A stretch of 64,000 bases of DNA from an uncultured Planctomycetia bacterium (GCA_964536865.1 CAZHYN010000002.1:64608-128607), one strand, 5' to 3'. Counted from the stretch's first letter, positions 21,159-61,164 are shown. Notes: generated from the sequence alone by a model not told the origin. Made by a program: numbers and translations.

Positions 21159-21740
21159 TTATAAGCCTAATTCTTCACTAATACCTTTCATTGCTTCTAA
21201 ACAAATGCTGATAAATTCACTAAGGGTAATTCCCAATTCTTGAGAACTCCTTATCTGTTCTCTGTTTGCCCCTCGGGCAAAACTCTTCTCTTTAAACCTA
21301 TTAAGAACAAATTTAACATCTAAAGCTCTAAGAGACTTTTCTGGATGCATTAAAGCAGAAGCTACAATCAATCCTGTTAAAGGGTCAACAGCATATAATG
21401 CCTTGGCCATCTTCGTTTTCCTTTCAATATGCCCGGGATGAGATTTTATTGCCTCAATCACCTCTTCATTAATACCTCGCTCTTTCAGAATCTCAGCAGT
21501 AACAAACCCATGTTGAGAAAAATCATCTTTTGTCTCCTCGTAATCTAAATCATGCAAAAGGCCAGCCAGGCCCCATAAATCCTGATCTTCTCCAAATTCT
21601 TTAGCTAATCTCCTCATACAAGCCTCAACAGCTAAACTATGTTTAATTAAATTCTTATTCTTTAGCCTTTCTTCTAACAACTTTAAGGCTTCTTTTCTGA
21701 ACATCTTTACTGCTCCAGAATCTGCACAATATCTACCCAC
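21159..21740 (-). CDS. HD-domain phosphohydrolase
   Basis: HSLAV...LLHDLDY HD motif. The track start is GTG; an internal ATG (MFRKEAL) may be the real start. Confidence 0.75.
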   Translation of the reverse strand: MGRYCADSGAVKMFRKEALKLLEERLKNKNLIKHSLAVEACMRRLAKEFGEDQDLWGLAGLLHDLDYEETKDDFSQHGFVTAEILKERGINEEVIEAIKSHPGHIERKTKMAKALYAVDPLTGLIVASALMHPEKSLRALDVKFVLNRFKEKSFARGANREQIRSSQELGITLSEFISICLEAMKGISEELGL

Positions 21741-45316: not shown

Positions 45317-46399
45317 CTAAAGATTTACGGTTCTTACAAAATGTAAAGGAGTTCTTTCCTTTATTAATCCCTTTAGGCGCAAACTGACCACAGTCTTGTT
45401 TACCATATCAAAACTTAAGCCAGTCTTTAAAATAAGTTCCTCTAAGTGAGTTCCTTTTTCTGAAATAGCTTCTAACGTCCTTCTCTCCTGAGGAGAAAGA
45501 GATAATCCCCTTTTGCCTTTGTGAGCTTCTATCTCTATATCTAAGTTTAGTTCTTCTAAGATATCTTCTATACCCTCCACTAACTTTGCTCCTTCTCTTA
45601 TAAGAAAATTAGTCCCTTTACTCAAAGGAGAATTAGCCTGCCCGGGAAGAGCAAAGACCTCACGATTCTGTTCACAGGCGTAGCGAGCAGTAATTAAAGC
45701 CCCGCTCTTAGCAGAGGCTTCAACTACCAGTACCCCCTTAGAAAGTCCACTTATTATCCTATTACGCCGGGGAAAATTCTCTCTTAACGGTGGCTCAAAG
45801 AGAGAGAATTCACTAACTAAAGCTCCTTCTTCTGAAATCTTGTAAGCTAACTTCCTGTTCTCTTTAGGATAGAGATTAAGAAGACCACTTCCTAATACAG
45901 CAACCGTTTTCCCTCCTCTTAAGGCAGATCTGTGAACCTGAGTATCTATTCCTCGAGCTAAACCAGAAACAACTACTATCCCTAAAGAGGCGAGACCAAA
46001 AGAAAACCTTTCTGCCATACTCAAACCGTAAACAGTAGGTATCCTACTTCCTACAATAGCAAAACATATTTGACTTAATACCTCTCTTTCTCCTTTAACG
46101 TAGAGGACAGGGGGAGCAAAAACTATCTCTTTAAGAAGAGGGGGATAATCTTGAGAAAAAATATCTATAATCTCTATCCCTTCTTTTTCTGCAATCTCTA
46201 ATTCCTTCTCTATCTGGAATGAGTTCTTTACTGAGAAAAACTTTTCTATCTCATAATCTTTAAAGTGTAGCTTCTCTCTTAGAGATCCGCTACCCATTTT
46301 TAGAATTTCATCAGGGTCAGCAAAAATAGAAACTGCTCTTTGAATCTTTTGAGGCGATATCTTTATGTGATTAAGCAGAAGGAGTGATTTTTTTATCAT
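45317..46399 (-). CDS. dprA: DNA processing protein DprA (Smf)
   Basis: VVSGLARGIDTQVH Rossmann core. Confidence 0.85.
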   Translation of the reverse strand: MIKKSLLLLNHIKISPQKIQRAVSIFADPDEILKMGSGSLREKLHFKDYEIEKFFSVKNSFQIEKELEIAEKEGIEIIDIFSQDYPPLLKEIVFAPPVLYVKGEREVLSQICFAIVGSRIPTVYGLSMAERFSFGLASLGIVVVSGLARGIDTQVHRSALRGGKTVAVLGSGLLNLYPKENRKLAYKISEEGALVSEFSLFEPPLRENFPRRNRIISGLSKGVLVVEASAKSGALITARYACEQNREVFALPGQANSPLSKGTNFLIREGAKLVEGIEDILEELNLDIEIEAHKGKRGLSLSPQERRTLEAISEKGTHLEELILKTGLSFDMVNKTVVSLRLKGLIKERTPLHFVRTVNL

Positions 46400-46901
46400 C
46401 TTTTAGAATCTCCATAATCTTATCCACCACTTGAGAGGGATTTAAACCAGAAGTATCTACTCTTAAGGGAACCTGGTGATAAAAAGGAGAACGATAAGCA
46501 AGAAGCTCCTCTATCTTTTTCTTAGGGTCAGCTACATTGAGAAGAGGACGATGCGTGTAACTTTTCGTCCTTTCATAGATTACCTCAACACTGGCTTCAA
46601 GACATACAGGTATTCCTGTAGCTTTAAGAATTTGTAAATTCTCTCTATCGATTACTATCCCTCCTCCACAGCTTACCACTAAATTTTTTCTCTCAGCAAT
46701 TTCTTTTAAAACTTCTTTTTCAACTTTTCTAAAATAACTCTCTCCATATAAGGAAAATATGTCTACAATTTTTTTGTTCTCTTTCTTTTCTATCTCTTCA
46801 TCCATCTCTATAAATTCTCTATTTAGCCTTTTAGCTAAAAGCTTACCCACAGTGGTTTTGCCTGTTCCCATAAATCCTACGATATATATGTTCTTATCCA
46901 T
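46371..46901 (-). CDS. aroK: Shikimate kinase
   Basis: IYIVGFMGTGKTTVGKLLA P-loop. Confidence 0.85.
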   Translation of the reverse strand: MDKNIYIVGFMGTGKTTVGKLLAKRLNREFIEMDEEIEKKENKKIVDIFSLYGESYFRKVEKEVLKEIAERKNLVVSCGGGIVIDRENLQILKATGIPVCLEASVEVIYERTKSYTHRPLLNVADPKKKIEELLAYRSPFYHQVPLRVDTSGLNPSQVVDKIMEILKDDKKITPSA

Positions 46902-46943
46902 TTTCTCAAAATTTATACTACAAATGGCGATTTGTCAACTCTT

Positions 46944-47022
46944 AAGTAAAACCCGAACCACGGGCTTACCCTCGCCCTTTCAAGGAAAGGGCGAGGTGGC
47001 TTTCTGTGGTTCGGGGTAAATA
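46944..47022. repeat. GC-rich nested palindrome: outer stem CCCGAACCAC/GTGGTTCGGG around inner CCTCGCCCTTTC-aag-GAAAGGGCGAGG; copy B of the family also seen at 32237-32297
   Basis: Shares the CGCCCTTTC...GAAAGGGCG core and TTTACCCCG / GTTCGGG flanks with copy A. Confidence 0.6.
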
Positions 47023-47091
47023 CTTCAATATATATTTTACTTGAAGAGAGAGTAAAGAGATGATAAGATTGAGAAGAAAGGGAGGAGGATT

Positions 47092-47715
47092 ATGAAAGAC
47101 GAAATGGATATCTTAAAAGAAGTAGGAAACACCGCTGCTGCTCATGGTAGTATTGCTCTCTCAGAAATCTTAGGGAAAAAAATCAAACTTCATCTTCCTG
47201 TTGTAGACATAATTCCTTGCAAGAATATAGGAAAAGCAATGCCTCAGGAAGGAATGAGTATAACTCTACAAACTCAACTCTTAAGTGGTTTAGATGGGAA
47301 AGTTGTTTTTATTTTGGAGGAAAAGCAAGCCTACAAACTTATCGATATATGCTATACAGGGGGAGAGATCAAAAAAACTGGAATATTTACGGAAATGGGA
47401 ATGAGTCTAATAAAAGAAGTAGGAAATGTAGTTATTGCTAGTTACATAAGTGCTTTAGGGTTCTTTCTAAGAAAATTAATTGTTCCCTCTCTACCTATAC
47501 TTATAAATGCTCCACTCCAAGAGATTATAAAACTTGTAGTTGCCGGTTACGGGGAACATGACTACGTATTGGTAGTAGAGAGTATCTTTGAAGAGTCAGA
47601 AACTAAAATAAAAGGGACTTTCTGGCTCCTTCTTGCTCCTGATTCTGTAAAGCAGATAAAGGAAGCTTGTAAGAAGCTGTTAGAAGAAGTAGGTAAAAAT
47701 GATGGAGGAAACTAG
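47092..47715 (+). CDS. CheC-like chemotaxis phosphatase (two CheC repeats)
   Basis: DILKEVGNTAAAHGSIALSEILG and a second LIKEVGNVVIASYISALG repeat. Confidence 0.65.
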   Translation: MKDEMDILKEVGNTAAAHGSIALSEILGKKIKLHLPVVDIIPCKNIGKAMPQEGMSITLQTQLLSGLDGKVVFILEEKQAYKLIDICYTGGEIKKTGIFTEMGMSLIKEVGNVVIASYISALGFFLRKLIVPSLPILINAPLQEIIKLVVAGYGEHDYVLVVESIFEESETKIKGTFWLLLAPDSVKQIKEACKKLLEEVGKNDGGN

Positions 47716-48631
47716 TAACATCTTAATCTTTACTCCGGATTCCGAACTAAAGGAGTATATCCAAAAACTTATCAAAGGAGAAGGTTATGAGGTGGATGAA
47801 GTCAATCAATTAGAGATGCTTCAGGAGAAGCTATCTCAAGAGAAAGTGGGACTTCTTCTCATTGATTCCATGGGAAGCAGTACCATAGATATATGTAAAA
47901 AAGTAAGATCTGATTTTACGTTACGCCATATTCCTATAATTGTAATAGTGGAAAAGGAAAGTACTATAGAAAAGATAAAAGTTATTTATGCGGGAGCTGA
48001 CGACTATGTAGAAAAACCTATTAATGCAGGAGAGTTGCTTATACGGATAAAAGCAAACCTTTGGCGAGCTAACCGTGACTTAGATGCCAATCCTTTAACC
48101 AAACTTCCTGGTAATGTTTCTATATTTAGGGAGTTAGAAAAGAGACTAAGAAACAAAGAATTTTTCTGTGTAGGATATGCGGATTTAGATAAGTTTAAAG
48201 AATACAACGACTACTATGGATTTGAGTGGGGAGACAAAGTAATAAAACATACAGCTAAAATTTTAACTAATGCTCTAAAAGAAGCAGGTTCACCCAACGA
48301 TTTTCTTGGACATATAGGAGGTGACGATTTCATCTTTATTACCGGCTGGGAAAGTATTAATAATGTATGCGAAAATATCATAGAGAACTTCGATAAAACT
48401 ATTCCTTCCTTCTATAAAGAGGAAGATTTAAAAAAGAGATATATTATTGTAAAAAACCGTTTAGGGAAAGTAACTTCTGTCCCTATACTCACAATCTCCA
48501 TTGGAGTAGCTACTAATGAAAAGAGATCTTTAGCTCACGTGGGTCAAATAATTCAAATAGCTACGGAATTAAAAACCTACGCTAAAACTTTTTCTAAGAG
48601 CTTGTATATAATCGATCGTCGAAGAGGTTAA
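47699..48631 (+). CDS. Response regulator with receiver + GGDEF diguanylate cyclase domain (GGDDF variant, no RxxD I-site)
   Basis: Receiver LLLIDSMGS...; GGDEF body ...[13 protein letters not shown]...[10 protein letters not shown]...TISIGVA. Confidence 0.75.
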
Positions 48632-50250
48632 CTACCTTCAAACTTAAATTTCTTCATTAACTCTTCCACTGACTTCGCTAGTTCACTTAGCTGCTGTGCT
48701 GAACTGACCATCTCTTCCATAGAGGTAGTCTGCTCCTGGATAGAAGCACTAGCTTCTTCTACTCCTGCAGATGTCCCTTCAATGATAGAGGCTACCTCCT
48801 CTACTGCCTTTACTCCTTCTTCAGTTCGAGCAAGCTGCTCAGATATGACTTTTACTATCTGCTGAGCCATAGTATTGGCTTCATTTACCGAAGAAATCAC
48901 TTCCTTTAAAGTATTTCTTACCTCTATTACTACGTTTCTTCCTTCAGTTACTTCTTTGGAACCAATCTCTATAGAAGAAATCGCTTTACCTATATCTTCC
49001 TGAATACTCTTTATCAAACCACCAATACGGCTAGCAGCTTGAGCAGAATTTTCTGCTAACTTTCTTATCTCATCAGCAACTACACCAAAACCTCTTCCTG
49101 CTTCTCCAGCACGTGCTGCTTCAATGGCAGCATTCAAGGATAAAAGATTAGTTTGGTCAGCAATATTAGTAATGGTAACAGTGATCTCTCCAATCTGTTG
49201 AGACCTTTCCTCTAAGATACGCATAACCTCCACGTTTTTATTTACCGTATCAAATACTCTATCCATTTTTTCTGATAAAGTGGGAATTTTCTCTCCACTT
49301 AAATTTACTTGAGAAGCTGCAGAAGCAGAAACATCAGCGGTGTTTTTTGCCTTATCACCAACTTCTCTTAAGGATACATTAACCTCTCCCATAATCCTAG
49401 ATACATTTTCCACCTTAACTGTCTGGTCAGTAACGCCCTTGGAGAGTTGAGCCATGGCAGCACTTATCTGCTGTATAACTTCACTCATCTGATGAGTTAT
49501 ATCTACAAACTGATGAGACGTCTCACTAATCTTTCTCCCCACTCTGCTGATTTCTAAAAGCGTGCCTTTCCAGAAAGAAACTATCTTATTTAGAATGTTA
49601 TTCAGTTTCCCTACTTTCTCTATACTTTTCTCTATTTCCTTAGGAAATCTTCCCTCTGCTATCTCTTCAAAGATAGAAACGAAACGATCAATAGGATGAA
49701 AAAGACGAGCAGAGAGGAATTTTACTAAAAAGAAAACTAACACCACTCCTGCCAAGAGAGGAATCACAATAGTAGTTGCTACCTTAGAAACTGCTTTTGT
49801 TACTATCTTAGAATTTTTGACTAAGGAGAGGAATCCCAATAGCTTACCTTCTTCGTCCTTTATAGGATGAAGAACACCAATCACTCTGTAGCCTAAGAGT
49901 TTCTCTATCCTCTCCTTATCTAGTTTGTTAATATCTATACTCTTATCTAACAATTTTGGGCTGCTACTAATTTCCACTCTTCCTTTCCTATCAGTAACAG
50001 CAACTACAAAATTCTGTAAAGTTTTGCTAAAAACTTTCAGGCTATCCTCTATTCCAGACTTACCCTCCTTAACCCACCTATTACTTACCGCAGCCTCTAA
50101 AACTTTTGCTAAATTCTTTAAAGCTTCTCCTTCTCGACTATAAATAACACTCTTTTGGTAGAAAAAACTAACTACACCCATAATAAAGAAAAATATGCAC
50201 AGAACAGTGGTAATCCAAATAGTAATTTTATCCTTCAAAAATTTTGGCAC
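48628..50250 (-). CDS. Methyl-accepting chemotaxis protein (membrane-anchored)
   Basis: TM helix; conserved signalling hairpin [33 protein letters not shown]. Confidence 0.85.
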
Positions 50251-50385
50251 CCCGCCCTCCTTGTTAACAACTTTTCTCGTTCATCAAAATTATATTTAAA
50301 AAAAGACGCACTCCCCCCTTTAAGGCAAAGTTTCAGGATAACACTTCCTTATCCAGAAAATTAGGCTTCTAAATTAACTAGGAAA

Positions 50386-50679
50386 TTAAGCTTCTAAAGG
50401 TAGTGTACTTACTTTCTCAAATTCAACTGCTACTTCCCACATCCCTTCCTTTTCCATCACTCTACTAACTTTACCTCTAACAAAGAAAGAACCTATAGTG
50501 GGAAGAATTTTGAACTCTCCGTAGATAATCGAACCTATCTCCACAGGGCGAGAAAGGTTAATCTTCATTCCTCCTGCGCTAATATCAACGACCTTCCCTT
50601 CTTCTCTTACCCCCGCACAGGAAATAACTGCCTTCTCCTCCTCTACGTACCAACGATTAAATTTGCGTCTCTCTTCCAT
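50386..50679 (-). CDS. PilZ-domain c-di-GMP receptor
   Basis: RRKFNR (RxxxR) and DISAGGMKI (DxSxxG) motifs. Confidence 0.75.
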   Translation of the reverse strand: MEERRKFNRWYVEEEKAVISCAGVREEGKVVDISAGGMKINLSRPVEIGSIIYGEFKILPTIGSFFVRGKVSRVMEKEGMWEVAVEFEKVSTLPLEA

Positions 50680-50695
50680 CTTTTATCCCTCCTTT

Positions 50696-51319
50696 CTATT
50701 CACCTTCTTTAACTCCTAAAGCCTTAAATAATTTCCTTAAAGATTCTAAATCAGGAAAAAATAAAAGGCAACCCCCAAAATCCATATCTCTTACTTTTAA
50801 TTCTGTTCTTATAAAAATGGCTTCATCGCTATGCTGAGCTATATGGATGAAAAAAAAGTCCATTATTGCTCCCACCATATCCATAGCTAATGAGGGGGTA
50901 GTATACATTATAGTAAAACCAGTCATATCAGAAAGAACATTCATATAAGCTCCTACTAAAATGTTAACCATTTCTCTCAAAGAGGAAAGGAACATGCCAT
51001 CGTTAAGGTCTACTTCCTCAGGAGGTTTCCCTAACAGAGTGCTCCCTAGGATCTTACCCTCTTGAGGTGCTAAAAGAAAGAATACCCTACCAGAGATTTC
51101 TCCCTCTACCCCAATATCTAAAACAAAATATAAATCTTCCGGATTACCCAAAACTTTATGGAGAGACTCTAAAGGTACTAATTTTGTCTCAGGGAGAGTA
51201 ATCTCTACTTTGCAATTAAGAAGCTCAGCTAAAGCAGTAGCGGATCTACCTGCTCCGATAGTCCCTACTTCTTTAAGAACATCTAACTGGTTCGAAGAAA
51301 TTTTTTTAGTTTCATCCAT
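50696..51319 (-). CDS. cheC: CheC-family phosphatase
   Basis: LDVLKEVGTIGAGRSATALAELL CheC consensus. Confidence 0.75.
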   Translation of the reverse strand: MDETKKISSNQLDVLKEVGTIGAGRSATALAELLNCKVEITLPETKLVPLESLHKVLGNPEDLYFVLDIGVEGEISGRVFFLLAPQEGKILGSTLLGKPPEEVDLNDGMFLSSLREMVNILVGAYMNVLSDMTGFTIMYTTPSLAMDMVGAIMDFFFIHIAQHSDEAIFIRTELKVRDMDFGGCLLFFPDLESLRKLFKALGVKEGE

Positions 51320-52346
51320 CTTTCAAATATTCTAAAATTTTGTCAGGTATTTTACTTACAGGTAAAATTTCATCAGCCAATTTTGCCTCTATTACTGCCC
51401 TAGGCATCCCATAAACCACACAACTTGCCTCATCCTGAGCAATTATCCTACCTCCTTTTTCTTTCACCTTCCTTGCTCCTTCTAACCCATCTTTACCCAT
51501 TCCAGTAAGAATTACCACTACTATCTCACCATCAAATACTTCCGCCAAAGAAGTTAAAGTCACGTCTATCGCTGGTCTTACATAGTTTACCAATGCTGTC
51601 TCATCTAATCTTATGCAATAACCCTCTAGGGCCTTTTCTATCATCATATGATATCCTGAGGGAGCTACAAATCCTGCTCCTTTTATAAGAAAATCCCCAT
51701 CTTCGGCTTCCTTTATCTTGATATTTGAATACCACGAAAGTCTCTCAGCAAAACTTCTGGTAAATCCTGGGGGCATATGTTGAATAATCAGAAAAGTATA
51801 ATCACAGTAGGAAGGAAATGTTTGCATTAAATCTAGTATGGCTTTAGGGCCACCAGTAGAAGCGCCTATTGCCACTATCTTTTTTACTGCTAGTTTCTCT
51901 TTATCAACGACTTTCTCTACCGTTAGAGAAAGAAACTTATTTAAATCTACCCTAGCAGTTAACTTAATCTTGGAGATTATTTCCTCTCTAAAATTATATA
52001 AATCTAAGGATACTTCCCCGCTAGGTTTAGGAATGAAGTCCAATGCTCCAAGTTCTAACGCTTTCATAGTAACTTTTGCCCCTCTCTGGGTATAGGCGGA
52101 GAGCATAACTACTCGTGTAGGGAAATTATGCATAAGTTCTTCTAGTACTTTCAACCCACTTATATCAGGAAGATTTACATCCAAGGTCACTACATCGGGC
52201 TTCAGCTCTGGAATCCTTTGGAGAGCCTCTCTTCCCAACTTAGTAGATCCTACCACTTCTATTTGAGGCTCACTGGATAAAATATCTCCTATTACTTTCT
52301 GCATTAAAATTGAATCTTCTACAATAAAGACTCTTACTTTTCTCAT
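51312..52346 (-). CDS. cheB: Chemotaxis methylesterase CheB (receiver + methylesterase)
   Basis: N-terminal receiver; GASTGGPKAI methylesterase motif. Confidence 0.9.
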   Translation of the reverse strand: MRKVRVFIVEDSILMQKVIGDILSSEPQIEVVGSTKLGREALQRIPELKPDVVTLDVNLPDISGLKVLEELMHNFPTRVVMLSAYTQRGAKVTMKALELGALDFIPKPSGEVSLDLYNFREEIISKIKLTARVDLNKFLSLTVEKVVDKEKLAVKKIVAIGASTGGPKAILDLMQTFPSYCDYTFLIIQHMPPGFTRSFAERLSWYSNIKIKEAEDGDFLIKGAGFVAPSGYHMMIEKALEGYCIRLDETALVNYVRPAIDVTLTSLAEVFDGEIVVVILTGMGKDGLEGARKVKEKGGRIIAQDEASCVVYGMPRAVIEAKLADEILPVSKIPDKILEYLKDG

Positions 52347-52840
52347 ACTTCTTTTTCTCCCTGAAACATCGTCTTTATTCTAACTTTGCCTGTATCTAAA
52401 TCAAAGAAAATAGTTCTTCCGTAGCTACCCCCAGTATCCTCTCCTACAATTTTGATCCCATGAGAAGCCAAAATCTCTCTTGCCTTATCGATATTTTTAC
52501 CTCCTACATTAAAAGGGCTATCTAAAGGAATAGAACTAAACATATGAGCTCCACCGAAAAGTTTTGCTACCAGTTGATGAGGTTGAACCCCCCGCTTCTT
52601 TAACTCATCAATCATAATGCCCACGGCAGAATCTACATACTTAGCAGGGTTAAACTTAGCTTTCGCATCAGCGATAGAAGGCAACATAGCATGAGCTAAA
52701 GCTCCTATCTTTTTTCTAGGTTCATAGACAGCGATACCAATACAAGATCCTAACCCCCGAGTGACGAGTACATCTGGAAAGCTTCCTACTCTTACCTCTG
52801 CCATACCTACTTCTATAAGATTACCTTTCCTTGCCTCCAT
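52343..52840 (-). CDS. cheD: Chemoreceptor glutamine deamidase CheD
   Basis: LGSCIGIAVYEP active-site Cys region. Confidence 0.85.
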   Translation of the reverse strand: MEARKGNLIEVGMAEVRVGSFPDVLVTRGLGSCIGIAVYEPRKKIGALAHAMLPSIADAKAKFNPAKYVDSAVGIMIDELKKRGVQPHQLVAKLFGGAHMFSSIPLDSPFNVGGKNIDKAREILASHGIKIVGEDTGGSYGRTIFFDLDTGKVRIKTMFQGEKEV

Positions 52841-52855
52841 GTTGAGAGATTTCTC

Positions 52856-53230
52856 CTATTCTCCTAACACTCTCCTTATAGCTTCTACAACACGAGATGG
52901 CTGAAATGGTTTTACGATAAAGTCCTTAGCTCCTGCCTGAATTGCTTCTACTACTAAAGCGTGCTGGCCCATAGCAGAAACCATTACAATTTTAGCATTA
53001 GGATCAATCCGCATAATCTCCTTTACCGCTCCAATCCCATCGATCTCTTCCATCTTAGGCATAACAATATCCATTGTAACTAAATCTGGCTTTAACTCCT
53101 TATACTTCTCAATCGCCTCTTTACCATTCTCTGCTTCGCCACAAATTTCAAAACCTTCTTTCTTTAAGATGTCTCCTAGCATCCTACGCATGAAGAGAGC
53201 ATCATCAACTATTAAGATTTTTGTCGGCAT
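52856..53230 (-). CDS. cheY: Chemotaxis response regulator CheY
   Basis: ILIVDDALFMRR...DIVMP...KPF single receiver. Confidence 0.85.
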   Translation of the reverse strand: MPTKILIVDDALFMRRMLGDILKKEGFEICGEAENGKEAIEKYKELKPDLVTMDIVMPKMEEIDGIGAVKEIMRIDPNAKIVMVSAMGQHALVVEAIQAGAKDFIVKPFQPSRVVEAIRRVLGE

Positions 53231-53259
53231 ACTAACCTCCTTTTTAACCTCGCCCTTTT

Positions 53260-54105
53260 CTATATCTTAACAAATATTTTATCAAGTAGACTTACAGGTT
53301 TAAAATAATTCCTTAGAGAAACACCTACACTCTCTACTTTCCCGAGAACTAAGTATCCTCCCTCCTTTAAGGACTTATGTACCTCTAAGAGAATTCTCTC
53401 GCTTTCCTCTAAACTAAAATATATTCTTACATTTCTAAAAAAGACCACATCTATAAACTTTAAGGGTGGGTCAAATAGTAAGTTGTGTTTTCTAAAAGTA
53501 ACCACTTCCTTTAAAGTATCTTTAACTTGATAAAGCCCTTTGCCTAAGGGAGTAAAATACTTATTTAAAATTAGAGGATCTACATTCCTCAAAGATCTCT
53601 CTGAGTAAATACCTTCCCTGGCTTTCTTTAAAGCTTGCTCATCAATATCGGTACCGTATATTTTTAAAACAAACTTATCGTTTATATTTATATTTTTTAA
53701 CTTCTCCAAAAAAATAATTGCTAAAGAATAGGGCTCCTCCCCACAAGAACACCCAGATGACCAACACCGTATCGTTTTCTCTCTTTGCTCTCTTTTCCTC
53801 TCTATTAGAGAGGGGATACAGATATCTCTAAACGTAGCAAAGACTTCGGGATCACGGAAAAGTTCAGAAACATTTATACTGAGGTTATCAAAAAAAATAT
53901 CCCATTCTTGAGGTTGTTTTTTTAATATCTGAATATAACCCAATAAATTATCCAAACCTAAATGGCTAAGTCTTAGCTTCAGTCTGCGGGTAAGAAAGCT
54001 TTTTCTATAGGAGGTTAAGTCTATTCCTCGATGTTTCCTTACAAAATTAAAGAAAAGGTCAATCTCATGGGAAGAAAAAAAATCTTTCTTTTCCACTTCC
54101 ACCAT
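53260..54105 (-). CDS. cheR: Chemotaxis methyltransferase CheR
   Basis: CheR all-alpha N-domain plus SAM-MTase domain (IRCWSSGCSCGEEPYSLAI). Confidence 0.85.
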   Translation of the reverse strand: MVEVEKKDFFSSHEIDLFFNFVRKHRGIDLTSYRKSFLTRRLKLRLSHLGLDNLLGYIQILKKQPQEWDIFFDNLSINVSELFRDPEVFATFRDICIPSLIERKREQREKTIRCWSSGCSCGEEPYSLAIIFLEKLKNININDKFVLKIYGTDIDEQALKKAREGIYSERSLRNVDPLILNKYFTPLGKGLYQVKDTLKEVVTFRKHNLLFDPPLKFIDVVFFRNVRIYFSLEESERILLEVHKSLKEGGYLVLGKVESVGVSLRNYFKPVSLLDKIFVKI

Positions 54106-54109
54106 GCTT

Positions 54110-54373
54110 TTAATGTTGGGGAGCCTTTTTAACCTTCTCTATTGCCTTGGTGAGCTCTTTAACTACATCAGCTCTAAGCTGAAGTTCAAGTTCAGCTATT
54201 TTAGTGTATACTCTCCCTTTATCGGTAACCACATATTTAGAGGGGAGATTATTTAAAGCTAAAGCCATTATATCCAATGTACACTTTTCACATTTGCATA
54301 CATCGTTTCTTCTGGAAAGTAAATTTTCCAAAGTATTTTTCACTATATCCTCCATGTAATTATGGCATTCCAT
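54110..54373 (-). CDS. ComFB-family small protein (4-Cys)
   Basis: NYMEDIVKNTLENLL...VCKCEKCTLDIMALALNNLPSKYVV matches the ComFB family signature. Confidence 0.7.
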   Translation of the reverse strand: MECHNYMEDIVKNTLENLLSRRNDVCKCEKCTLDIMALALNNLPSKYVVTDKGRVYTKIAELELQLRADVVKELTKAIEKVKKAPQH

Positions 54374-54450
54374 TATCCACCTCCTTAGAAAATAGTAGTA
54401 TAAAATTAATTATTTTATACGTCAATAGAAAAATCATTTTTAACTATAAA

Positions 54451-56370
54451 TTACTTTATATTAACTACATCCAAGATTAAAGCTATCCGACCGTCACCTA
54501 AGATAGTTCCTCCTGCAATCCCTCTTATTCTTTTAACGAAGGAACCCAAAGGTTTTACTACAATATCCTGCTCACCTATCACTTTATCTACAACCAGACC
54601 CATACTTTTTGTTCTACCTTCTACTATCACTACCGAGATTTCTTCCTTCTCGTAAGTAGCTAATGTCTTCATCCCTAACTCCTTATCTAACCTAAGAATA
54701 GGAACAATCTCTTCTCTTACACGCATCACTTCTATATCTTTTATTCTTTTTAGCTCCGCTTCTTTTACCTTTACTGTCTCTCGGATGTTCATAAGAGGAA
54801 TAGCATAAATCTGTTCTCCAATAACGACTAACATAGCTTTTATAATAGCTAAAGTTAAAGGTAAAGTAAGAATAAATTTTGTTCCCTTCCCTCGCTGCGT
54901 CTCCAAATCCAATCTTCCTCCCAGAGCATCTAACTTGTTACGTACTACATCTAATCCCACTCCTCGGCCTGATACATCAGTCACTTTCTCACTGGTAGAG
55001 AAACCAGGCATAGTAAGGATATCTAAAATTTGACGATAGTCATTTTTGGAAACCTCTTGAGGAGAAATTAGTCCTTTTTCTGCTGCAGCAGCTACCACCT
55101 TATCTATATCTATCCCCCTCCCATCGTCACTAATCTCTATTATAATATGACCCTTCTCTCGGGATACTTTGATAAGTATCTTACCACGGGGGGGTTTACC
55201 TATTTTCCTTCTCTCTTGAGGAGTCTCTATTCCATGGTCTATAGCATTTCTAATAAGGTGTACTAAAGGATCACCTATCTCATCTAAAACTACCCTGTCT
55301 AACTCTATCTCACTGCCCACTATGTCTAAATCTACCTCCTTACCTTCTTTCCGAGATAGATCTCTTACAATCCGAGGGAAATTATCCAGGATATAAGAAA
55401 CAGGTAAGAGCCTCATCTTCAATGCCTCATCCTGAAGAGAAGAGACCAATCTTTCGATAAGATAAGTGGTCTCTTCTAAAGCTGTATAATCCTTGCTTAT
55501 TACAGTCTGAGTAAGTCTACTTTTAGTAATAGCTAACTCCCCCATCAGATTCATAATCTTATCTAATCGCTCTACCGGTATCCGCATACTCTGAATCTTC
55601 TTAATATAAGGGGTAGTTTTTCCTTTTTTTCTTTCTACTTTCTCAGCAGAAGAAGTGAATTTAGAAACTCTAATCTCCTTAACTTCTAAAATCTTAGAAA
55701 CTTCTTCTTTGATTTTTTCTGGCGGTTCCTTAGTAGCCAAAAAGAAATGAAATGAATTTCCAAATGTACCGGCTTTCAACTTATCCTCAGAAGGGATAAC
55801 CTGGATTATTTGACCTAACATTCTCACTCTCTTAAGAATAAGAAAGGCCCTTGCCCCTTTAAGAAGACAGTCATCTTGCAGGGTTACTTCCACTTTTAAG
55901 AGTTCCTTATTCTCCTTCCTTAACTTTTTAATATACTCCTCATCTATGTGTGTTGGATATTCCTGAAGAACTTGAGGATATTCTTTTCTCTCTTCTTTAG
56001 AGACTAAACTACTTAACCTTACTAAATAGGAAGGAATATCTACAGATATAGGTTTCTCTTCTCTTAACTCCTCTACAACAGTAGTAAAGGCATCGATACT
56101 CTCAAAAACAACATCCATTATCTCAGGCGTCAGTGTTGATTTACCAGACCGGAAATTATCAAAAGTGTCCTCTAAATGATGAGCAAACTCTGCCAACTCT
56201 TTATATCCCATAGTTGCTGCCATCCCTTTAAGGGTATGCATATGTCGGAATATCTCATTTATGGATTGTTCATCATGAGGATTCTTTTCTAAATTAACTA
56301 AAGCTTTATTTATCTCCTTCAGATACTCTTGGGACTCACTGAAGAATAGCTCACGATAATTCTTTTCCAT
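54451..56370 (-). CDS. cheA: Chemotaxis histidine kinase CheA (Hpt, dimerisation, kinase, C-terminal CheW-like P5)
   Basis: HTLKGMAATMG Hpt His; HATPase G-boxes; C-terminal CheW-like domain. Confidence 0.9.
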   Translation of the reverse strand: MEKNYRELFFSESQEYLKEINKALVNLEKNPHDEQSINEIFRHMHTLKGMAATMGYKELAEFAHHLEDTFDNFRSGKSTLTPEIMDVVFESIDAFTTVVEELREEKPISVDIPSYLVRLSSLVSKEERKEYPQVLQEYPTHIDEEYIKKLRKENKELLKVEVTLQDDCLLKGARAFLILKRVRMLGQIIQVIPSEDKLKAGTFGNSFHFFLATKEPPEKIKEEVSKILEVKEIRVSKFTSSAEKVERKKGKTTPYIKKIQSMRIPVERLDKIMNLMGELAITKSRLTQTVISKDYTALEETTYLIERLVSSLQDEALKMRLLPVSYILDNFPRIVRDLSRKEGKEVDLDIVGSEIELDRVVLDEIGDPLVHLIRNAIDHGIETPQERRKIGKPPRGKILIKVSREKGHIIIEISDDGRGIDIDKVVAAAAEKGLISPQEVSKNDYRQILDILTMPGFSTSEKVTDVSGRGVGLDVVRNKLDALGGRLDLETQRGKGTKFILTLPLTLAIIKAMLVVIGEQIYAIPLMNIRETVKVKEAELKRIKDIEVMRVREEIVPILRLDKELGMKTLATYEKEEISVVIVEGRTKSMGLVVDKVIGEQDIVVKPLGSFVKRIRGIAGGTILGDGRIALILDVVNIK

Positions 56371-56376
56371 AATGAT

Positions 56377-56982
56377 TTAAATTTCGGTAGCTTTAAGAAG
56401 AATCTCCAAGCCCTTAGGATTGGGTAGGAGAAAAAAATGTCCGGTAACTTTTGTTGTGGCTTCACTAAACTCTGATTTTATAAGTAAAGCGTAAGGAGAA
56501 ATATTACTCAATTCTATAAGAATGTAATCTACCATTGCTCCTGCCATATCCTCAATAACTTCAGGGACGGTGGGAACAAGTCCCCACTTTACAAACACGG
56601 AGAGTGCTCCCAGATAAGCGTTGGCTAGAATCACTCCTATTTCTTTAAGAGCTGAACGTTCCATATCAGTTATTACTCCTCCGTTAGATGACTTTCTATT
56701 AGTTAACAGAGAAGCTAATCCTAACGCATCTTTATGGGAAAAGATAAGAAGAATCACACTGGGAAAGTCACCTAGAATTCTTACAATTAACCCTACAACT
56801 AATTTCTCTTCTCCTACAATTTGAGGAACTTTCTCCACAGGAAGAAAATAAATTTCGGGGACATTTATTTCTATTTTCTTATTGGTAAGTTGAGATAGAG
56901 CAGTAGCAGCGTTACCTGCACAGATATTCCCAATTTCTCTTAGAGCATCTTTTTGAAACTCATCGAACTTTATCTCTTCCAT
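56377..56982 (-). CDS. CheC/CheX-like phosphatase
   Basis: ALREIGNICAGNAATALSQL CheC consensus. Confidence 0.7.
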   Translation of the reverse strand: MEEIKFDEFQKDALREIGNICAGNAATALSQLTNKKIEINVPEIYFLPVEKVPQIVGEEKLVVGLIVRILGDFPSVILLIFSHKDALGLASLLTNRKSSNGGVITDMERSALKEIGVILANAYLGALSVFVKWGLVPTVPEVIEDMAGAMVDYILIELSNISPYALLIKSEFSEATTKVTGHFFLLPNPKGLEILLKATEI

Positions 56983-57372
56983 CTACTTATTTTCCGAAGA
57001 GATGGCTTTCTTTATTACCTCCAAGAGCTTCTCTGCAGTAAAGGGTTTAATCACGAAGTCCTTAGCCCCATAAGCTAAAGCCTCCTGAACCAATCTCCTA
57101 TCCCCCAAAGCGGAAATAACCACAATTTTTGCCTCAGGATCAAAGGATATAATTTCCCTTACTGCACTAATCCCATCCATTTCTTCCATCATAGGCATTA
57201 CAATATCCAAAGTAACTAAATCTGGATTGAGCTCCTTATACTTCTGCACTCCCTCTAAGGCGTTGGATGCTTCTCCACAGATCTCAAAACCTGCCTTTAC
57301 TAGAATATCCCTTATAAGATTTCTCATGAATAAAGCATCATCAACTATTAATACACGTTTCCTCTCCATCAT
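56983..57372 (-). CDS. CheY-like response regulator (second copy)
   Basis: VLIVDDALFMRN...DIVMP...KPF. Confidence 0.8.
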   Translation of the reverse strand: MMERKRVLIVDDALFMRNLIRDILVKAGFEICGEASNALEGVQKYKELNPDLVTLDIVMPMMEEMDGISAVREIISFDPEAKIVVISALGDRRLVQEALAYGAKDFVIKPFTAEKLLEVIKKAISSENK

Positions 57373-57414
57373 TACTTATTATACCTTCTTCTTAAAAATC
57401 CACAATAAAAAACT

Positions 57415-58575
57415 TTACTTAGTATACTTTTTTATAAGACTCAGAGCAATTATATTCTTCTGAATCTGATTGGTCCCTTCATATATCTGAGTAATCTTAG
57501 CATCGCGCATGAATTTCTCTATTCCATACTCACGCATATACCCGTAACCTCCAAAAATCTGCACAGCTTCAGTAGTAACTTCCATAGCAACATCGGAAGC
57601 AAAAAGCTTTGCACAAGCAGAGGCTGCTCCAATATCCTTCTTACCTCTATCTACCATAGAGGCAACAGCGTAAACTAAGCTTCTTGCTGCTTCTATTTTC
57701 GTAGCCATATCTGCTAGCATCCATTGAATTCCCTGAAAAGAAGTGATAACCTTACCAAACTGGACTCTTTTGTGGGCGTACTCTACGGCTAACTCTAACG
57801 ACCCTTGAGCAATACCTACCGCTTGAGCAGCTACCCCTGGTCGAGATTGCTCAAATGTCTTCATAGTAACAATGAATCCTGTGCCCTCTTTCCCTCCTAA
57901 AAGGTTCTCTGCAGGAACTTTTGCTTCGTTAAAGATAAGCTCCCTGGTAGAAGAAGCTCTTATTCCCATCTTTTCTTCTTTCTTACCAAATTCAAAACCC
58001 CCAGCTCCTTTCTCTATAATAAAAGCAGACATTCCTCTCGGTCCTCTCTTTTTGTCAGTAACAGCAATCACGGTATAGATATCTGCTTCTCCTCCATTAG
58101 TAATAAAATGTTTAGTGCCATTAAGAATATAAGAATCACCTTCTTTCCTTGCAGTAGTCTTTACTGCTGCAGCGTCAGAGCCTGCTTCTGGCTCAGTAAG
58201 ACAAAAAGCAGCTAATTTTTCTCCCGAAGCAATACTAGGCAGATACCTTTTTTTCTGCTCTTCGGTACCAAACAAAAGGATAGGAAACATACCTAAGAAA
58301 GAGGCAGCATAAGAAGCAGCAATTCCTCCGTCTATACGAGAAATTTCTTCAGTAGCGATACACAACTCAAGTAATCCTCCCCCCATTCCTCCATACTCTT
58401 GGGGAATACATATCCTAAAAAGATCAGACTGAGCTAAAACTTCCATAATAAAACGAGGGAATTCTTCCTTCTCATCAAACTCTCTCGATACTGGCTTAAT
58501 CTTCGTTTCAGCAACTTGCCGACACAAATCTTTAAGCATTAACTGTTCTTCAGTTAACTGATACTCCACAAACAT
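57415..58575 (-). CDS. Acyl-CoA dehydrogenase
   Basis: ACAD three-domain similarity; C-terminal QIFGGYGYMREYGIEKFMRDAKITQIYEGTNQIQ. Confidence 0.85.
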   Translation of the reverse strand: MFVEYQLTEEQLMLKDLCRQVAETKIKPVSREFDEKEEFPRFIMEVLAQSDLFRICIPQEYGGMGGGLLELCIATEEISRIDGGIAASYAASFLGMFPILLFGTEEQKKRYLPSIASGEKLAAFCLTEPEAGSDAAAVKTTARKEGDSYILNGTKHFITNGGEADIYTVIAVTDKKRGPRGMSAFIIEKGAGGFEFGKKEEKMGIRASSTRELIFNEAKVPAENLLGGKEGTGFIVTMKTFEQSRPGVAAQAVGIAQGSLELAVEYAHKRVQFGKVITSFQGIQWMLADMATKIEAARSLVYAVASMVDRGKKDIGAASACAKLFASDVAMEVTTEAVQIFGGYGYMREYGIEKFMRDAKITQIYEGTNQIQKNIIALSLIKKYTK

Positions 58576-58589
58576 CTCCCGCCTCCTTC

Positions 58590-59048
58590 TTAGGAATTAA
58601 TCTTTAAAATAAACGCTTTCTCTTTACAATGAGGAAAATAAGGACAAGTTACACATTCACTCCAAATCTTATGAGGCAGTTTCTCTTTAGGTATCTTTTT
58701 AAAACCTAATCTTCTAAAAAACGCTCCTACAAAAGTTAAAGCAAAAACTCTCTTAACCCCTAAAGATTTAGCTTCTTCTATACATACGGAGACTAACTTC
58801 TTCCCTATACCTTTTCTTTGATATTCTTTAACCACTACCAAAGATTTAATCTCTGCTAAATCATCCCATCCCACAATATGAAGAGCACAGGCACCCACAA
58901 TTTTTCTTCTTTCTTGATAAACCCAAAAGTCTCTAATATGCTCATAGATATAGTTGAGAGAACGAGAAAGAACTTTTCCCTCTTTTGCCCAAAAGGCTAT
59001 AAGACGGTAAATTTTTTCTGCATCGGTAATTTTTGCTCTTCGAAGCAT
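58590..59048 (-). CDS. GNAT-family N-acetyltransferase
   Basis: QRKGIGKKLV acetyl-CoA binding motif. Confidence 0.7.
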   Translation of the reverse strand: MLRRAKITDAEKIYRLIAFWAKEGKVLSRSLNYIYEHIRDFWVYQERRKIVGACALHIVGWDDLAEIKSLVVVKEYQRKGIGKKLVSVCIEEAKSLGVKRVFALTFVGAFFRRLGFKKIPKEKLPHKIWSECVTCPYFPHCKEKAFILKINS

Positions 59049-59052
59049 ACCT

Positions 59053-59604
59053 TTAAAAGAAAAAAGAAAAACCTATCAAAGCTAATTTAGCATCTATCCC
59101 TTTATTGGGCTTTTTGATTCCAGCGTTAGAAAGATGCCGGTAGCGATATTCTAAACTTATCGCTGAATTCTTACTAATAAAGTAGTGAAAACCTGCTCCT
59201 ATCTGAGGCAAGAAATTATATTGGCTACCCTGCTCACGAGTGTGCTGACTCATATAAACAACACCTACACCTCCCTTAAGATAAGGCTGTATATTCTTGG
59301 TAAAATTGAATCTGTATTTGGCAAGAAAATTTACCCCTCCTTCTAAATTTGGATCGGGCTGCACTATCAAAGTAGTAAACATCTCTACAATAAAGCTTAA
59401 GTGAGAGTTCCCTTTTAGGTCTATTCTCCTTAAAACTTCTTGGGAGGAGAAGTCAAACGAAAAGAAAAAAGGTATTCCTATGTAATCTTGCTTTTCATCC
59501 AAGGAAGCAGAAAGATATCCTGTAAAAACCTCTATCCCTTCCAAACAGAACCCTGCCCGAGGAATAAAAACAAAAAGAAGGAGAAGTAACGTTTTCTTCA
59601 CCAA
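59053..59604 (-). CDS. Outer-membrane beta-barrel, PagL-like lipid A deacylase candidate
   Basis: Signal peptide; alternating beta-strand pattern; C-terminal aromatic residue; RYRHLSNAG (HxSN) motif. Confidence 0.5.
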   Translation of the reverse strand: MVKKTLLLLLFVFIPRAGFCLEGIEVFTGYLSASLDEKQDYIGIPFFFSFDFSSQEVLRRIDLKGNSHLSFIVEMFTTLIVQPDPNLEGGVNFLAKYRFNFTKNIQPYLKGGVGVVYMSQHTREQGSQYNFLPQIGAGFHYFISKNSAISLEYRYRHLSNAGIKKPNKGIDAKLALIGFSFFF

Positions 59605-59691
59605 TCTCTCTCTTTCTTTAAGAATTAATTTTAAACTTTAAGCCAAACTGTGTCAAACGCTTTTTCTTTATCAAACGAGGTAAGACAAAAG

Positions 59692-60084
59692 TTACTTTCC
59701 CACCAAAATCTTATCTACCACCTCTATTAATTGCTCAGGGGTAAAGGGTTTAGCTAAGAGTTGATACTTTCCACCCGAAGGATAAAGTCTTCTTATCTCT
59801 TCTTCTCGAATTAAACAGGTGAGAAAGATAACAGGTATCTTTTTGGTCAAAAAATCTTCTTGAAGACTTTGAGCCATGGTAGTTCCATCCATTATTGGCA
59901 TAAGAATATCTAGGATGATTAAATCAGGAAGGATCTCTTTTGCTTTCTTTAACCCATCCTCTCCATTACGGGCACCTATTACTTGATAACCTTTTTGTGT
60001 AAGGATGCGCTCTACTGCCTCTACAATATAGGGTTCATCATCTACCACTAAAACTTTTTTTTCCACATTCACCTCCTTATCCAA
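59692..60084 (-). CDS. Stand-alone response regulator receiver
   Basis: VLVVDDEPYI...DLIILDILMP...KPF. Confidence 0.75.
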   Translation of the reverse strand: MDKEVNVEKKVLVVDDEPYIVEAVERILTQKGYQVIGARNGEDGLKKAKEILPDLIILDILMPIMDGTTMAQSLQEDFLTKKIPVIFLTCLIREEEIRRLYPSGGKYQLLAKPFTPEQLIEVVDKILVGK

Positions 60085-60105
60085 ATTAAATCTCTCATTT
60101 TATTG

Positions 60106-61164
60106 TCACTCTCCGATTTTAGTAAAATAGATAGTTTGGGTAGGATAGGCAAACTCTATACCACGTTTTTCGAATTCTTCTTTTATAGCAAAGTTAATTT
60201 CCTGTTGAATATCCATATATTTGTTATAATCACTTCCTATAACGTAATAAACTATCTCAAAAATTAGACTAAAATCACCATAAGAGAAAAAATGTGCCCT
60301 ATCAAAAACTGCATCCTTCACATTTTTAATAATACTCTCAATTATCTTAGGTATCTCTTTCAATTTTTCTAAGGGAGTACTATAAACTACCCCAATGCGA
60401 AAAAGAACCCTCCTTTTTTCCATACGTTTGTAGTTTCTTACCCGAGAATCGGTAAGGTCAGTATTGGAAAAAACTAACTGCTCCCCACTTAAGCTCCTTA
60501 TCCTGGTAGTCTTAGCCCCAATGTACTCTACCGTACCTAAGTAGTCATCAATGATAATAAAGTCTCCTACCTCAAAGGGACGATCAAAAATTATAGAGAA
60601 ATAGCTGAACAAATCTTTTAGGATTGCCTGAGCTGCTAAACCTACAGCTATGCCTCCAATTCCTAAACCAGCAATTACCGTAGAGATTTTAAACCCTAAG
60701 TTATCTAAGAAAAAGACGATAGCTAATCCCCAGATAACTACCCTGATCACCCTTAAAATCCCTTTAAGGCTCCGCTGTAACGCCACATCTTTACCTCGCT
60801 TTATCCAGTAAATCTCGAAAATATAACTTATAACTTCTCCCAGAAGACGAGCCCCTGCTAACGTTAAAATAGCTATTCCTAAAATATTAATTACTTTTCT
60901 TAAGTAGGGATGTAACTTCAGGATATTCACACTGATATAGAATGCCCCCCAATAAAGCAAAGGCAGACCAATTTTTTCTATGAGAGCTATGATGAAATCG
61001 TCAATAGTGGTTTTACTTTTCTGAGCCCATTCCTTAAGCCGCCTAAGAGCTATTCTCTTAAAGACTCTAATAATAAAAATTGCAACAGAAAGGGTAAGAA
61101 GAAAAATAAAATAACTTAATAAGTGATTACCAAAAAATGTAATGTCTAAAAAACTATCCCCCAT
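60106..61164 (-). CDS. MscS-family mechanosensitive channel
   Basis: TM helices, then the FEVGDFIIIDDYLGTVEYIGAKTTRIRSLSGEQL beta-domain. Confidence 0.8.
   Translation of the reverse strand: MGDSFLDITFFGNHLLSYFIFLLTLSVAIFIIRVFKRIALRRLKEWAQKSKTTIDDFIIALIEKIGLPLLYWGAFYISVNILKLHPYLRKVINILGIAILTLAGARLLGEVISYIFEIYWIKRGKDVALQRSLKGILRVIRVVIWGLAIVFFLDNLGFKISTVIAGLGIGGIAVGLAAQAILKDLFSYFSIIFDRPFEVGDFIIIDDYLGTVEYIGAKTTRIRSLSGEQLVFSNTDLTDSRVRNYKRMEKRRVLFRIGVVYSTPLEKLKEIPKIIESIIKNVKDAVFDRAHFFSYGDFSLIFEIVYYVIGSDYNKYMDIQQEINFAIKEEFEKRGIEFAYPTQTIYFTKIGE

Follow-up and report, generated by a model that had tools for sequence, protein, structure and literature searches.

A chemosensory gene cluster of Candidatus Omnitrophota with putative modules for making and reading c-di-GMP

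Chemosensory locus and its conservation

What does a chemosensory (Che) pathway control when two genes of cyclic di-GMP (c-di-GMP) receptor type, comFB and pilZ, stand inside its operon and a gene for a receiver-GGDEF protein converges on it? This question is raised by positions 47092–57372 of CAZHYN010000002.1:64608-128607, a stretch of 64,000 nucleotides (nt; hereafter the window) which is part of a 146-kb contig of a metagenome-assembled genome (MAG). Homologues of the proteins encoded in the window carry the label Candidatus Omnitrophota, and by these labels the host is an uncultured Candidatus Omnitrophota bacterium. A first-pass annotation of the sequence had read the locus as a pathway of Wsp-like logic without stand-alone cheW, which both produces and reads c-di-GMP and has the receiver-cyclase as its sole output. 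The best explanation of the present results, with a probability of roughly 0.55, is an F1-like Che pathway carrying modules that would make and read c-di-GMP and probably controlling type IV pili. The locus is a real, only partly new form of the known cross-talk between c-di-GMP and chemotaxis.

The minus strand encodes, from 57372 to 48628, cheY-cheC-cheA-comFB-cheR-cheY-cheD-cheB-cheC-pilZ-mcp, where mcp stands for the gene of a methyl-accepting chemotaxis protein (MCP), and a plus-strand pair, consisting of a cheC-like gene and the receiver-GGDEF gene (termed REC-GGDDF below), converges on this operon. The genes were called from a listing of open reading frames (ORFs) together with Pfam and NCBIfam profile searches of the window, which bear out the genes named in the first-pass annotation, and the identity of the locus as a chemosensory operon with this gene content is practically certain. 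The minus-strand che genes abut or overlap, apart from a gap of 77 nt before comFB and one of about 135 nt before mcp. The position of the ComFB and PilZ genes among che genes is likewise confirmed by matches to PF10719 and PF07238.

Relatives of the locus (designated L and a number) were collected in two scans. In the ComFB-anchored scan, a ComFB alignment was run against one genome per species, giving 80 loci that were annotated by phmmer with the window proteins, and in the cyclase-anchored scan an alignment of four REC-GGDDF orthologues was run against metagenomes, giving 80 loci, 38 of which hold orthologues (at least 46% identity). The same che cluster is found in 13 loci of the genome scan, mostly labelled Omnitrophota (three are from Planctomycetes-type MAGs and one from a Deltaproteobacteria MAG), and in many metagenome loci; since the order recurs in this way, the arrangement of the genes is not due to chance. 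Outside these clusters, the survey covered close rather than more distant ComFB homologues, and no che gene was found within 10 kb of any of the approximately 65 examined (Actinomycetota/Solincola, FCPU426, Clostridia and others). The conservation points to a phylum-wide module in which a cyclic dinucleotide, most probably c-di-GMP, would be coupled to Che signalling. What stands of the pathway proposed by the first-pass annotation is thus the conserved link between Che proteins, a receiver-cyclase and two receptor-type proteins, while the making and reading of c-di-GMP itself may take place.

ComFB and the methyltransferase CheR

The ComFB-family protein (54110–54373, minus strand; 87 amino acids, aa) is a putative receptor of cyclic dinucleotides, with an E-value of 1.5e-27 and 95.9 bits against PF10719 (curated cut-off 25) and a gap-free alignment to B. 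subtilis ComFB (4WAI; E 8.9e-6). It retains D33, A36, L37, N40, Y46, V47 and Y55 (B. subtilis numbering) as well as four cysteines, and seven of the eight conserved residues for ligand binding or dimerization are present. Its stop codon lies 4 nt ahead of the start of cheR (53260–54105, minus strand), whose product is the receptor methyltransferase (Pfam CheR_N and CheR, E 5.5e-52). All of the 13 che-linked genome loci have comFB directly upstream of cheR, and the same arrangement is seen in the metagenome loci L089, L096, L100, L101, L120 and L121.

The two window proteins are colinear with seven ComFB-CheR fusion proteins, and the stop codon, the 4 nt and the ATG between the two genes fall at the fusion linker. 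With one fusion as query, 424 proteins were retrieved at E ≤ 1e-20; among the best 120 clusters, 119 contain both PF10719 and PF01739, and those with a name are all from Omnitrophota/Omnitrophica, with the exception of one 'Deltaproteobacteria' MAG. Three loci (L009, L089 and L120) hold a fusion in addition to the split pair. By this Rosetta-stone argument, the fusions support a partnership of ComFB and CheR, and not by themselves the binding of a ligand by every copy; a functional coupling of the two proteins is therefore quite probable on comparative grounds. One 543-aa fusion (L105:7996-9627) is extended at its N-terminus by about 175 aa that match nothing in Pfam at E ≤ 0.001.

ComFB-CheR fusions in Candidatus Omnitrophota have been mentioned before in a single sentence (Samir et al. 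2025, PMC12448109, section 9), so that the view that ComFB had no described placement of this kind is not supported. The known fusions (e.g. UniProt A0A1G1PT98) are from the same phylum and have the same two domains in the same order as the window pair; the window, however, encodes them separately, and more of the ligand-binding residues are retained in its stand-alone ComFB than in the fused domains. That article lists the domain architecture only, without the che operon, PilZ, the GGDDF cyclase or the context of pilus genes, and it also reports that in other phyla comFB stands next to genes for pili, flagella and GGDEF proteins. A full-text literature search found no paper on a split comFB-cheR pair in a che operon, on the co-conserved PilZ, on the pair of CheC3 and the GH-GGDDF cyclase described below, or on their joint association with pilus genes.

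A functional parallel of the pair is MapZ-CheR1 of P. aeruginosa (PMC6370697), where a small c-di-GMP receptor is likewise paired with a chemoreceptor methyltransferase and adaptation follows the level of the second messenger. MapZ, however, is a PilZ protein that is not encoded beside cheR1 and belongs to a flagellar system, whereas the candidate in the window is ComFB, and its interaction with CheR is suggested by fusion and adjacency. ComFB is the third widespread family of c-di-GMP receptors, only recently recognised and with few known protein targets. From the ComFB-CheR pairs, split as well as fused, the chemoreceptor methyltransferase emerges as a concrete target, which can be tested with recombinant proteins although the phylum is uncultured.

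Positions 54397–54425 (minus strand), which fall within the 77 nt separating cheA from comFB, hold a sigma-70-like sequence matching at 10 of 12 positions (TTGACG, a spacer of 17 nt, and TATACT), which could be an internal promoter for comFB-cheR; such matches are no commoner here than in shuffled sequence.

GGDDF cyclase and its CheC partner

The plus-strand gene at 47699–48631 encodes a receiver-GGDEF protein, REC-GGDDF, which is provisionally identified as a diguanylate cyclase (Pfam GGDEF, E 2e-15 and 57.4 bits against PF00990; Response_reg, E 4.4e-12; TIGR00254 over residues 144–297). Its best relative of solved structure is chain 6ZXM (E 6.5e-18), deposited under the title 'putative GGDEF/response regulator receiver domain protein'. 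The canonical GGDEF motif assumed in the first-pass annotation is not present: the sequence reads GHIGGDDF, and an I-site is lacking, with SPND in place of RxxD. The residues of the metal site and those contacting guanine (DxD...FKxxND...GD) are present and invariant in one alignment (A2), the last of them in a WGD. The receiver domain has the phospho-acceptor D56 and K106.

The altered motif is not peculiar to the window. GH[IV]GGDD[FY] is invariant in about 60 members of the family, down to approximately 33% identity, and unrelated GGDEF matches in the same metagenome scan show R[YW]GG[DE]EF, so that the motif, judged by these alignments, marks a conserved GGDEF subfamily and not a decayed domain. 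That GGDD[FY] and the N, D and K residues for substrate and metal are strictly kept over such a divergence argues for catalysis, and the balance is modestly in favour of REC-GGDDF being an active cyclase. Activity with this motif is known from GSU1937 of Geobacter sulfurreducens, a Hypr GGDEF enzyme which is also a GGDDF variant without a partner EAL or HD-GYP domain (PMC8835794). GSU1937 has the Hypr serine and makes cyclic GMP-AMP (cGAMP), whereas the window protein keeps the guanine-specifying aspartate, has a receiver domain and falls in the separate GH[IV]GGDDF lineage. The subfamily is worth measuring because GGDDF proteins are usually annotated as degenerate, and in a bolder variant of the proposal its members may make a product other than c-di-GMP. 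Two other assignments were considered and rejected: Hypr (cGAMP) specificity, as the guanine-specifying Asp is present in WGD, and a Cas10-like cyclase (PF22335, 26.1 bits against a cut-off of 27), as the full-length alignments to GGDEF and to the REC-GGDEF protein 6ZXM favour a GGDEF domain. More distant GH[IV]GGDDF members occur in three metagenome loci (L135, L137 and L139) as tandem pairs of proteins of about 310 aa, where the N-terminal domains no longer match a receiver and che genes are not found nearby.

The partner gene, encoding CheC3 (47092–47715, plus strand; Pfam CheC, E 1.5e-6; NCBIfam CheC_Thtogales, E 2.4e-25), overlaps the REC-GGDDF gene by 17 nt, and the 3' end of the latter overlaps the 3' end of mcp by 4 nt. 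CheC3 had been taken for a 'weak' CheC-like protein; both its D/S-x3-E-x2-N-x22-P sites are intact in the alignment. Where the upstream sequence suffices (32 loci), CheC3 is encoded directly upstream of the REC-GGDDF orthologue and in the same direction in 25 cases. The orthologue is flanked by PilZ, CheW, MCP, ComFB, CheR or other Che or Pil genes in 21/38 loci, and the arrangements differ: the pair converges on pilZ, cheW or mcp in some loci, as it does in the window, follows the che operon directly on the same strand in L096 and L121 (metagenome) and in L005 (genome scan), and follows a ComFB-CheR fusion in L097, while L103, L105 and L107 have an operon of a ComFB-CheR fusion, REC-GGDDF and PilZ. 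As the link of cyclase and che genes is frequent and recurs in different gene orders, it argues for a function, without being obligatory, and from this synteny the CheC3/REC-GGDDF pair likely belongs to the pathway.

Within the 64 kb, the pair (47092–48631) comprises the only convincing plus-strand genes, and it coincides with the sole 2-kb bin of positive GC skew (+0.018; -0.08 to -0.46 elsewhere). Skew and strand together suggest an inverted or inserted two-gene unit.

PilZ

The single-domain PilZ protein (50386–50679, minus strand; 97 aa) matches PF07238 with an E-value of 7e-12 and 46 bits (cut-off 22.5) and has both canonical motifs, RKFNR for RxxxR and DISAGG for DxSxxG, as the first-pass annotation had reported. 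DxSxxG is kept in 5/5 orthologues and RxxxR in 4/5. A PilZ protein that modulates a CheY-P phosphatase of the CheC/CheX family is known from V. cholerae (PlzC-CheX, PMC12799141), and in the window pilZ stands directly after cheC2. The control of CheX by PlzC is reported to be separable from c-di-GMP binding (PMC12799141), and across the relatives of the window the neighbour of PilZ changes between CheC2, CheW and MCP. Additional small PilZ genes (119–135 aa) occur near orphan cheW genes or cheW-pilZ units in other Omnitrophota MAGs (L165:16175-16534 and L173:11036-11407), and PilZ paralogues may be common in Omnitrophota.

The missing cheW

No stand-alone cheW or cheW remnant was found in the 64 kb, where phmmer and tblastn searches with seven CheW probes matched nothing but P5 of CheA. 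For the window, the absence of cheW is thus correct, but as a property of the system it does not hold. A stand-alone cheW (155–171 aa) is present in eight of the nine related clusters extending past cheC2, L005 being the only one that lacks it like the window. One relative (L169/L170) is syntenic with the window over the common flank aroK-dprA-topA-xer-kdtA-lpxK and has mcp-cheW-pilZ converging on REC-GGDEF/cheC3, where the window has pilZ-mcp instead; judging by this synteny, the window has lost cheW from the site that it holds in this relative. The absence is therefore a local rearrangement and not a trait of the pathway. An orphan cheW stands among housekeeping genes in another Omnitrophota MAG, and presumably the host genome of the window also encodes cheW elsewhere. 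In a search with the CheW of the closest relative, three candidates were looked up, and none comes from the samples of the window (SRR7517633/4); they brought to light the syntenic mcp-cheW-pilZ order and the orphan cheW just described.

Pilus genes in the neighbourhood

Pilus-type genes recur beside the che and fusion genes of the relatives. In eight loci (L003, L007, L008, L029, L041, L045, L100 and L101), a PilM/FtsA/MreB-like protein of 712 aa is encoded between cheC and comFB. PilM(N) and PilO precede the ComFB-CheR fusion in L009, L089 and L120, and in L103, L105, L107, L182 and L183 the fusions are divergent from an operon of pseudopilins, PilM(N), PilO and secretin, which in L182 and L183 also contains a TPR protein and an MshEN-T2SSE ATPase. 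This pilus ATPase near the fusions bears the c-di-GMP-binding MshEN domain. The fusions beside pilus operons are in some cases tandem and in others followed by REC-GGDDF and PilZ, and the other flanks scanned hold unrelated housekeeping genes. No flagellar family was detected among about 30 flanking proteins searched with Pfam or in the precomputed Pfam calls of fetched loci, the other flanks having been probed for Che, PilZ, ComFB and Pil proteins only, a search blind to flagellar genes. From these neighbourhoods, type IV pilus function is given an even chance of being the output, and is more likely than flagellar rotation.

Two side observations concern these genes. The 712-aa protein (L003:7852-9990) is soluble, with no predicted transmembrane segment; its N-terminal half is actin-like (FtsA/MreB/PilM), and its C-terminal half, which has no Pfam match, shows by eye about five short ThiS-type beta-grasp-like repeats (NG...G..I.F). 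In L182:10001-12206 and L183:10001-12209, the ComFB-CheR fusion genes divergent from the pilus operon are tandem duplicates.

Che proteins and pathway class

The kinase CheA (54451–56370, minus strand; 639 aa) contains the domains P1–P5 (Hpt, P2, H-kinase_dim, HATPase_c and CheW in Pfam), of which P5 spans residues 512–637, with a single Hpt and no receiver domain. It scores 486.7 bits with the NCBIfam model CheA_Halo and 369 bits with the E. coli-type model. There are two single-domain receivers, both on the minus strand: CheY1 (56983–57372) with the canonical DD, D, S and K residues (Pfam Response_reg, E 5.5e-26; best NCBIfam match CheY_Halo) and CheY2 (52856–53230; Response_reg, E 4.4e-31; CheY_Halo, E 4.3e-37). 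CheC1 (56377–56982; Pfam CheC, E 1.6e-18; CheC_Thtogales, E 4.6e-43) and CheC2 (50696–51319; CheC, E 2.1e-15; CheC_Thtogales, E 8.7e-50), encoded on the same strand, belong to the family of CheY-P phosphatases; by alignment, CheC1 has its first active-site motif intact and a change of N to V in the second, and CheC2 has the second intact and a change of N to T in the first. The set is completed by CheD (52343–52840, minus strand; Pfam CheD, E 5.8e-33), CheB with a receiver and a methylesterase domain (51312–52346, minus strand; CheB_methylest, E 4.7e-62, and Response_reg) and the transmembrane MCP (48628–50250, minus strand; MCPsignal, E 2.3e-40). Hydropathy of the MCP sequence predicts two transmembrane segments and a periplasmic domain of about 125 aa; its HAMP match, a weak one, does not reach the curated cut-off, and the approximately 308 aa from there to the C-terminus would fit a 44-heptad receptor.

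By gene content and by the archaeal and Thermotoga models that match best in NCBIfam, not by phylogeny, the locus resembles the F1 class (B. subtilis, T. maritima and archaea), with which it has in common the set of CheA, CheY, CheB, CheR, CheC and CheD and an MCP estimated at about 44 heptads. It differs from this class in that cheW and cheV are missing from the locus, in the extra comFB, pilZ, third cheC and receiver-cyclase, and in that its relatives are linked to pilus rather than flagellar or archaellar genes. Wsp of Pseudomonas (WspA-F and WspR) is likewise a Che-type pathway with a receiver-GGDEF protein; it differs in that WspE is a hybrid of CheA and receiver, free CheY, CheC and CheD are absent, and WspR has GGEEF and an RxxD I-site, none of which holds in the window. 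Pil-Chp, of the Tfp class, is also a Che-like pathway and is proposed to control type IV pili, but ChpA is a multi-Hpt hybrid kinase, the receivers are PilG and PilH, and CheC and CheD are absent, whereas the window CheA has one Hpt and no receiver. By domain content, the locus is neither Wsp (alternative cellular function class, ACF) nor Pil-Chp.

Proposed pathway and alternatives

From what is observed, namely the genes with their motifs, a gene order conserved among relatives, the fusions and the recurrent pilus neighbourhood, we infer the following steps. The MCP would signal through CheA, with the help of a CheW from another part of the genome, to CheY1, CheY2 and CheB, and CheC1 and CheC2 with CheD would shape the lifetime of CheY-P as in F1-type systems. 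REC-GGDDF would be phosphorylated by CheA~P or another kinase, CheA being the likeliest donor because the linkage is recurrent, and would then make c-di-GMP, until reset by the co-transcribed CheC3, which is fully competent in its motifs. ComFB may bind the dinucleotide and act on CheR, so that receptor methylation and adaptation depend on the level of the second messenger, as with MapZ-CheR1. PilZ may carry this signal on, either to a phosphatase of CheC type, in analogy to PlzC and CheX, or to the array of CheW and MCP, and the behavioural output would be type IV pilus function rather than flagellar rotation. A fuller version, a phylum-specific closed loop, is offered tentatively and is considered less likely than not: CheA would drive the GH-GGDDF cyclase with its own CheC phosphatase, and ComFB, as split or fused partner of CheR, and PilZ would read the nucleotide and feed back on receptor methylation and CheY-P lifetime, steering an MshE-type pilus and not a flagellum. 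A PilZ conserved alongside, a GGDDF cyclase paired with a CheC, and the nearby pilus genes suggest a way in which bacteria of very small size, possibly attached to a host, might link the sensing of a surface or host to the behaviour of their pili.

Several observations weigh against this proposal. There is no pilus gene within the 64-kb window. The CheC3/REC-GGDDF pairs of L086, L104, L106, L111 and L141 are isolated, che genes being absent within a distance of 10 kb, and L056, the closest representative cluster, has CheC3 without the cyclase. The receiver of REC-GGDDF has a valine at T87, the Thr/Ser switch, and only one Asp in the acidic pocket, and it is too diverged to match the window CheYs at an E-value of 1e-4. 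The fourth residue of the GGDEF motif is usually the catalytic-base Glu, acting across the dimer, where this protein has Asp, and PA3258, a GGDDF-EAL protein, is inactive as a cyclase (PMC8835794). In the window ComFB, R/K41 is replaced by Asn, at a position which varies (N, R, K, D or E) among close homologues; the fused ComFB domains are diverged paralogues, often without D33 or N40, and some ComFB proteins bind cyclic di-AMP instead (PMC12448109). The changing neighbourhood of PilZ leaves its partner undefined by synteny.

Other explanations were considered. In a flagellar F1-type operon, ComFB and PilZ would slow swimming in response to c-di-GMP, as in B. subtilis, the CheC3/REC-GGDDF pair would be nearby by chance, and cheW and the flagellar genes would lie elsewhere. 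The F1-like gene content with its archaeal and Thermotoga matches for CheA, CheY and CheC would agree with this, as would the cheW in the clusters of relatives, the isolated cyclase pairs, and the c-di-GMP-dependent inhibition of flagellar motility by B. subtilis ComFB (PMC12448109, PMC12265714). The explanation is nevertheless unlikely, as pilus and secretin genes recur in the flanks, flagellar families do not appear among the roughly 30 Pfam-scanned flanking proteins, and che, ComFB-CheR or PilZ genes are linked to the cyclase pair in over half of its orthologous loci, in several arrangements. A further possibility is a vestigial or different nucleotide link, with REC-GGDDF as a non-catalytic receptor or adaptor, or as an enzyme with another product, and ComFB as a Zn-binding adaptor which localises CheR and does not sense c-di-GMP. 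It could explain the non-canonical GGDDF with His replacing the usual Arg ahead of the motif, the sub-threshold match to a Cas10 palm domain, the Asn at R/K41 and the missing ligand residues of fused ComFB domains, and the lack of any EAL or HD-GYP gene in the window. The strictly kept GGDD[FY] and N, D and K residues, the activity of GSU1937, the canonical PilZ that is co-conserved with the cyclase, and the MshEN domain on the pilus ATPase beside the fusions all speak against such a link, which is considered rather improbable.

The Wsp-like logic favoured by the first-pass annotation, where the Che proteins would serve the receiver-cyclase only, c-di-GMP synthesis would be the sole output and ComFB and PilZ would be downstream readers, is likewise regarded as improbable. 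A gene of REC-GGDEF type does adjoin the operon, on the same strand in L005, L096 and L121, and the window has neither flagellar nor pilus genes. On the other side, CheA lacks the C-terminal receiver of WspE, and the two canonical single-domain CheY, the CheD and the three CheC proteins are typical of motility-type pathways. The cyclase is a GGDDF protein without the RxxD I-site, is missing from L056, L032 and the sequenced parts of several other clusters, and is also found away from che genes.

Other features of the window

The remaining genes of the window encode enzymes of purine biosynthesis, of lipid A and of the lipopolysaccharide core, XerC/D, TopA, DprA, AroK and similar housekeeping proteins. 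Profile searches of the ORFs detected no flagellar or pilus gene in the 64 kb, so that the absence of flagellar genes claimed for the locus extends to the whole window. An HD-domain protein (21159–21740) was considered as an HD-GYP phosphodiesterase and rejected, as it contains no GYP motif. A scan of 46300–60200 for promoters and terminators found fewer sites than in shuffled sequence, and is for this reason uninformative on operon structure.

Upstream of the che operon, a GNAT acetyltransferase (58590–59048, minus strand) is encoded two genes before cheY1 and is 71% identical to L056:6951-7403, which is placed within the che cluster of L056 between cheW and cheC1, where cheY1 would be; by this comparison, the che module may have the acetyltransferase as a conserved neighbour. 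An orphan single-domain receiver of 130 aa (59692–60084, minus strand), encoded about 2.3 kb ahead of the operon, shares 27% identity with CheY2, and it is adjoined by a mechanosensitive channel of MscS type (60106–61164, minus strand).

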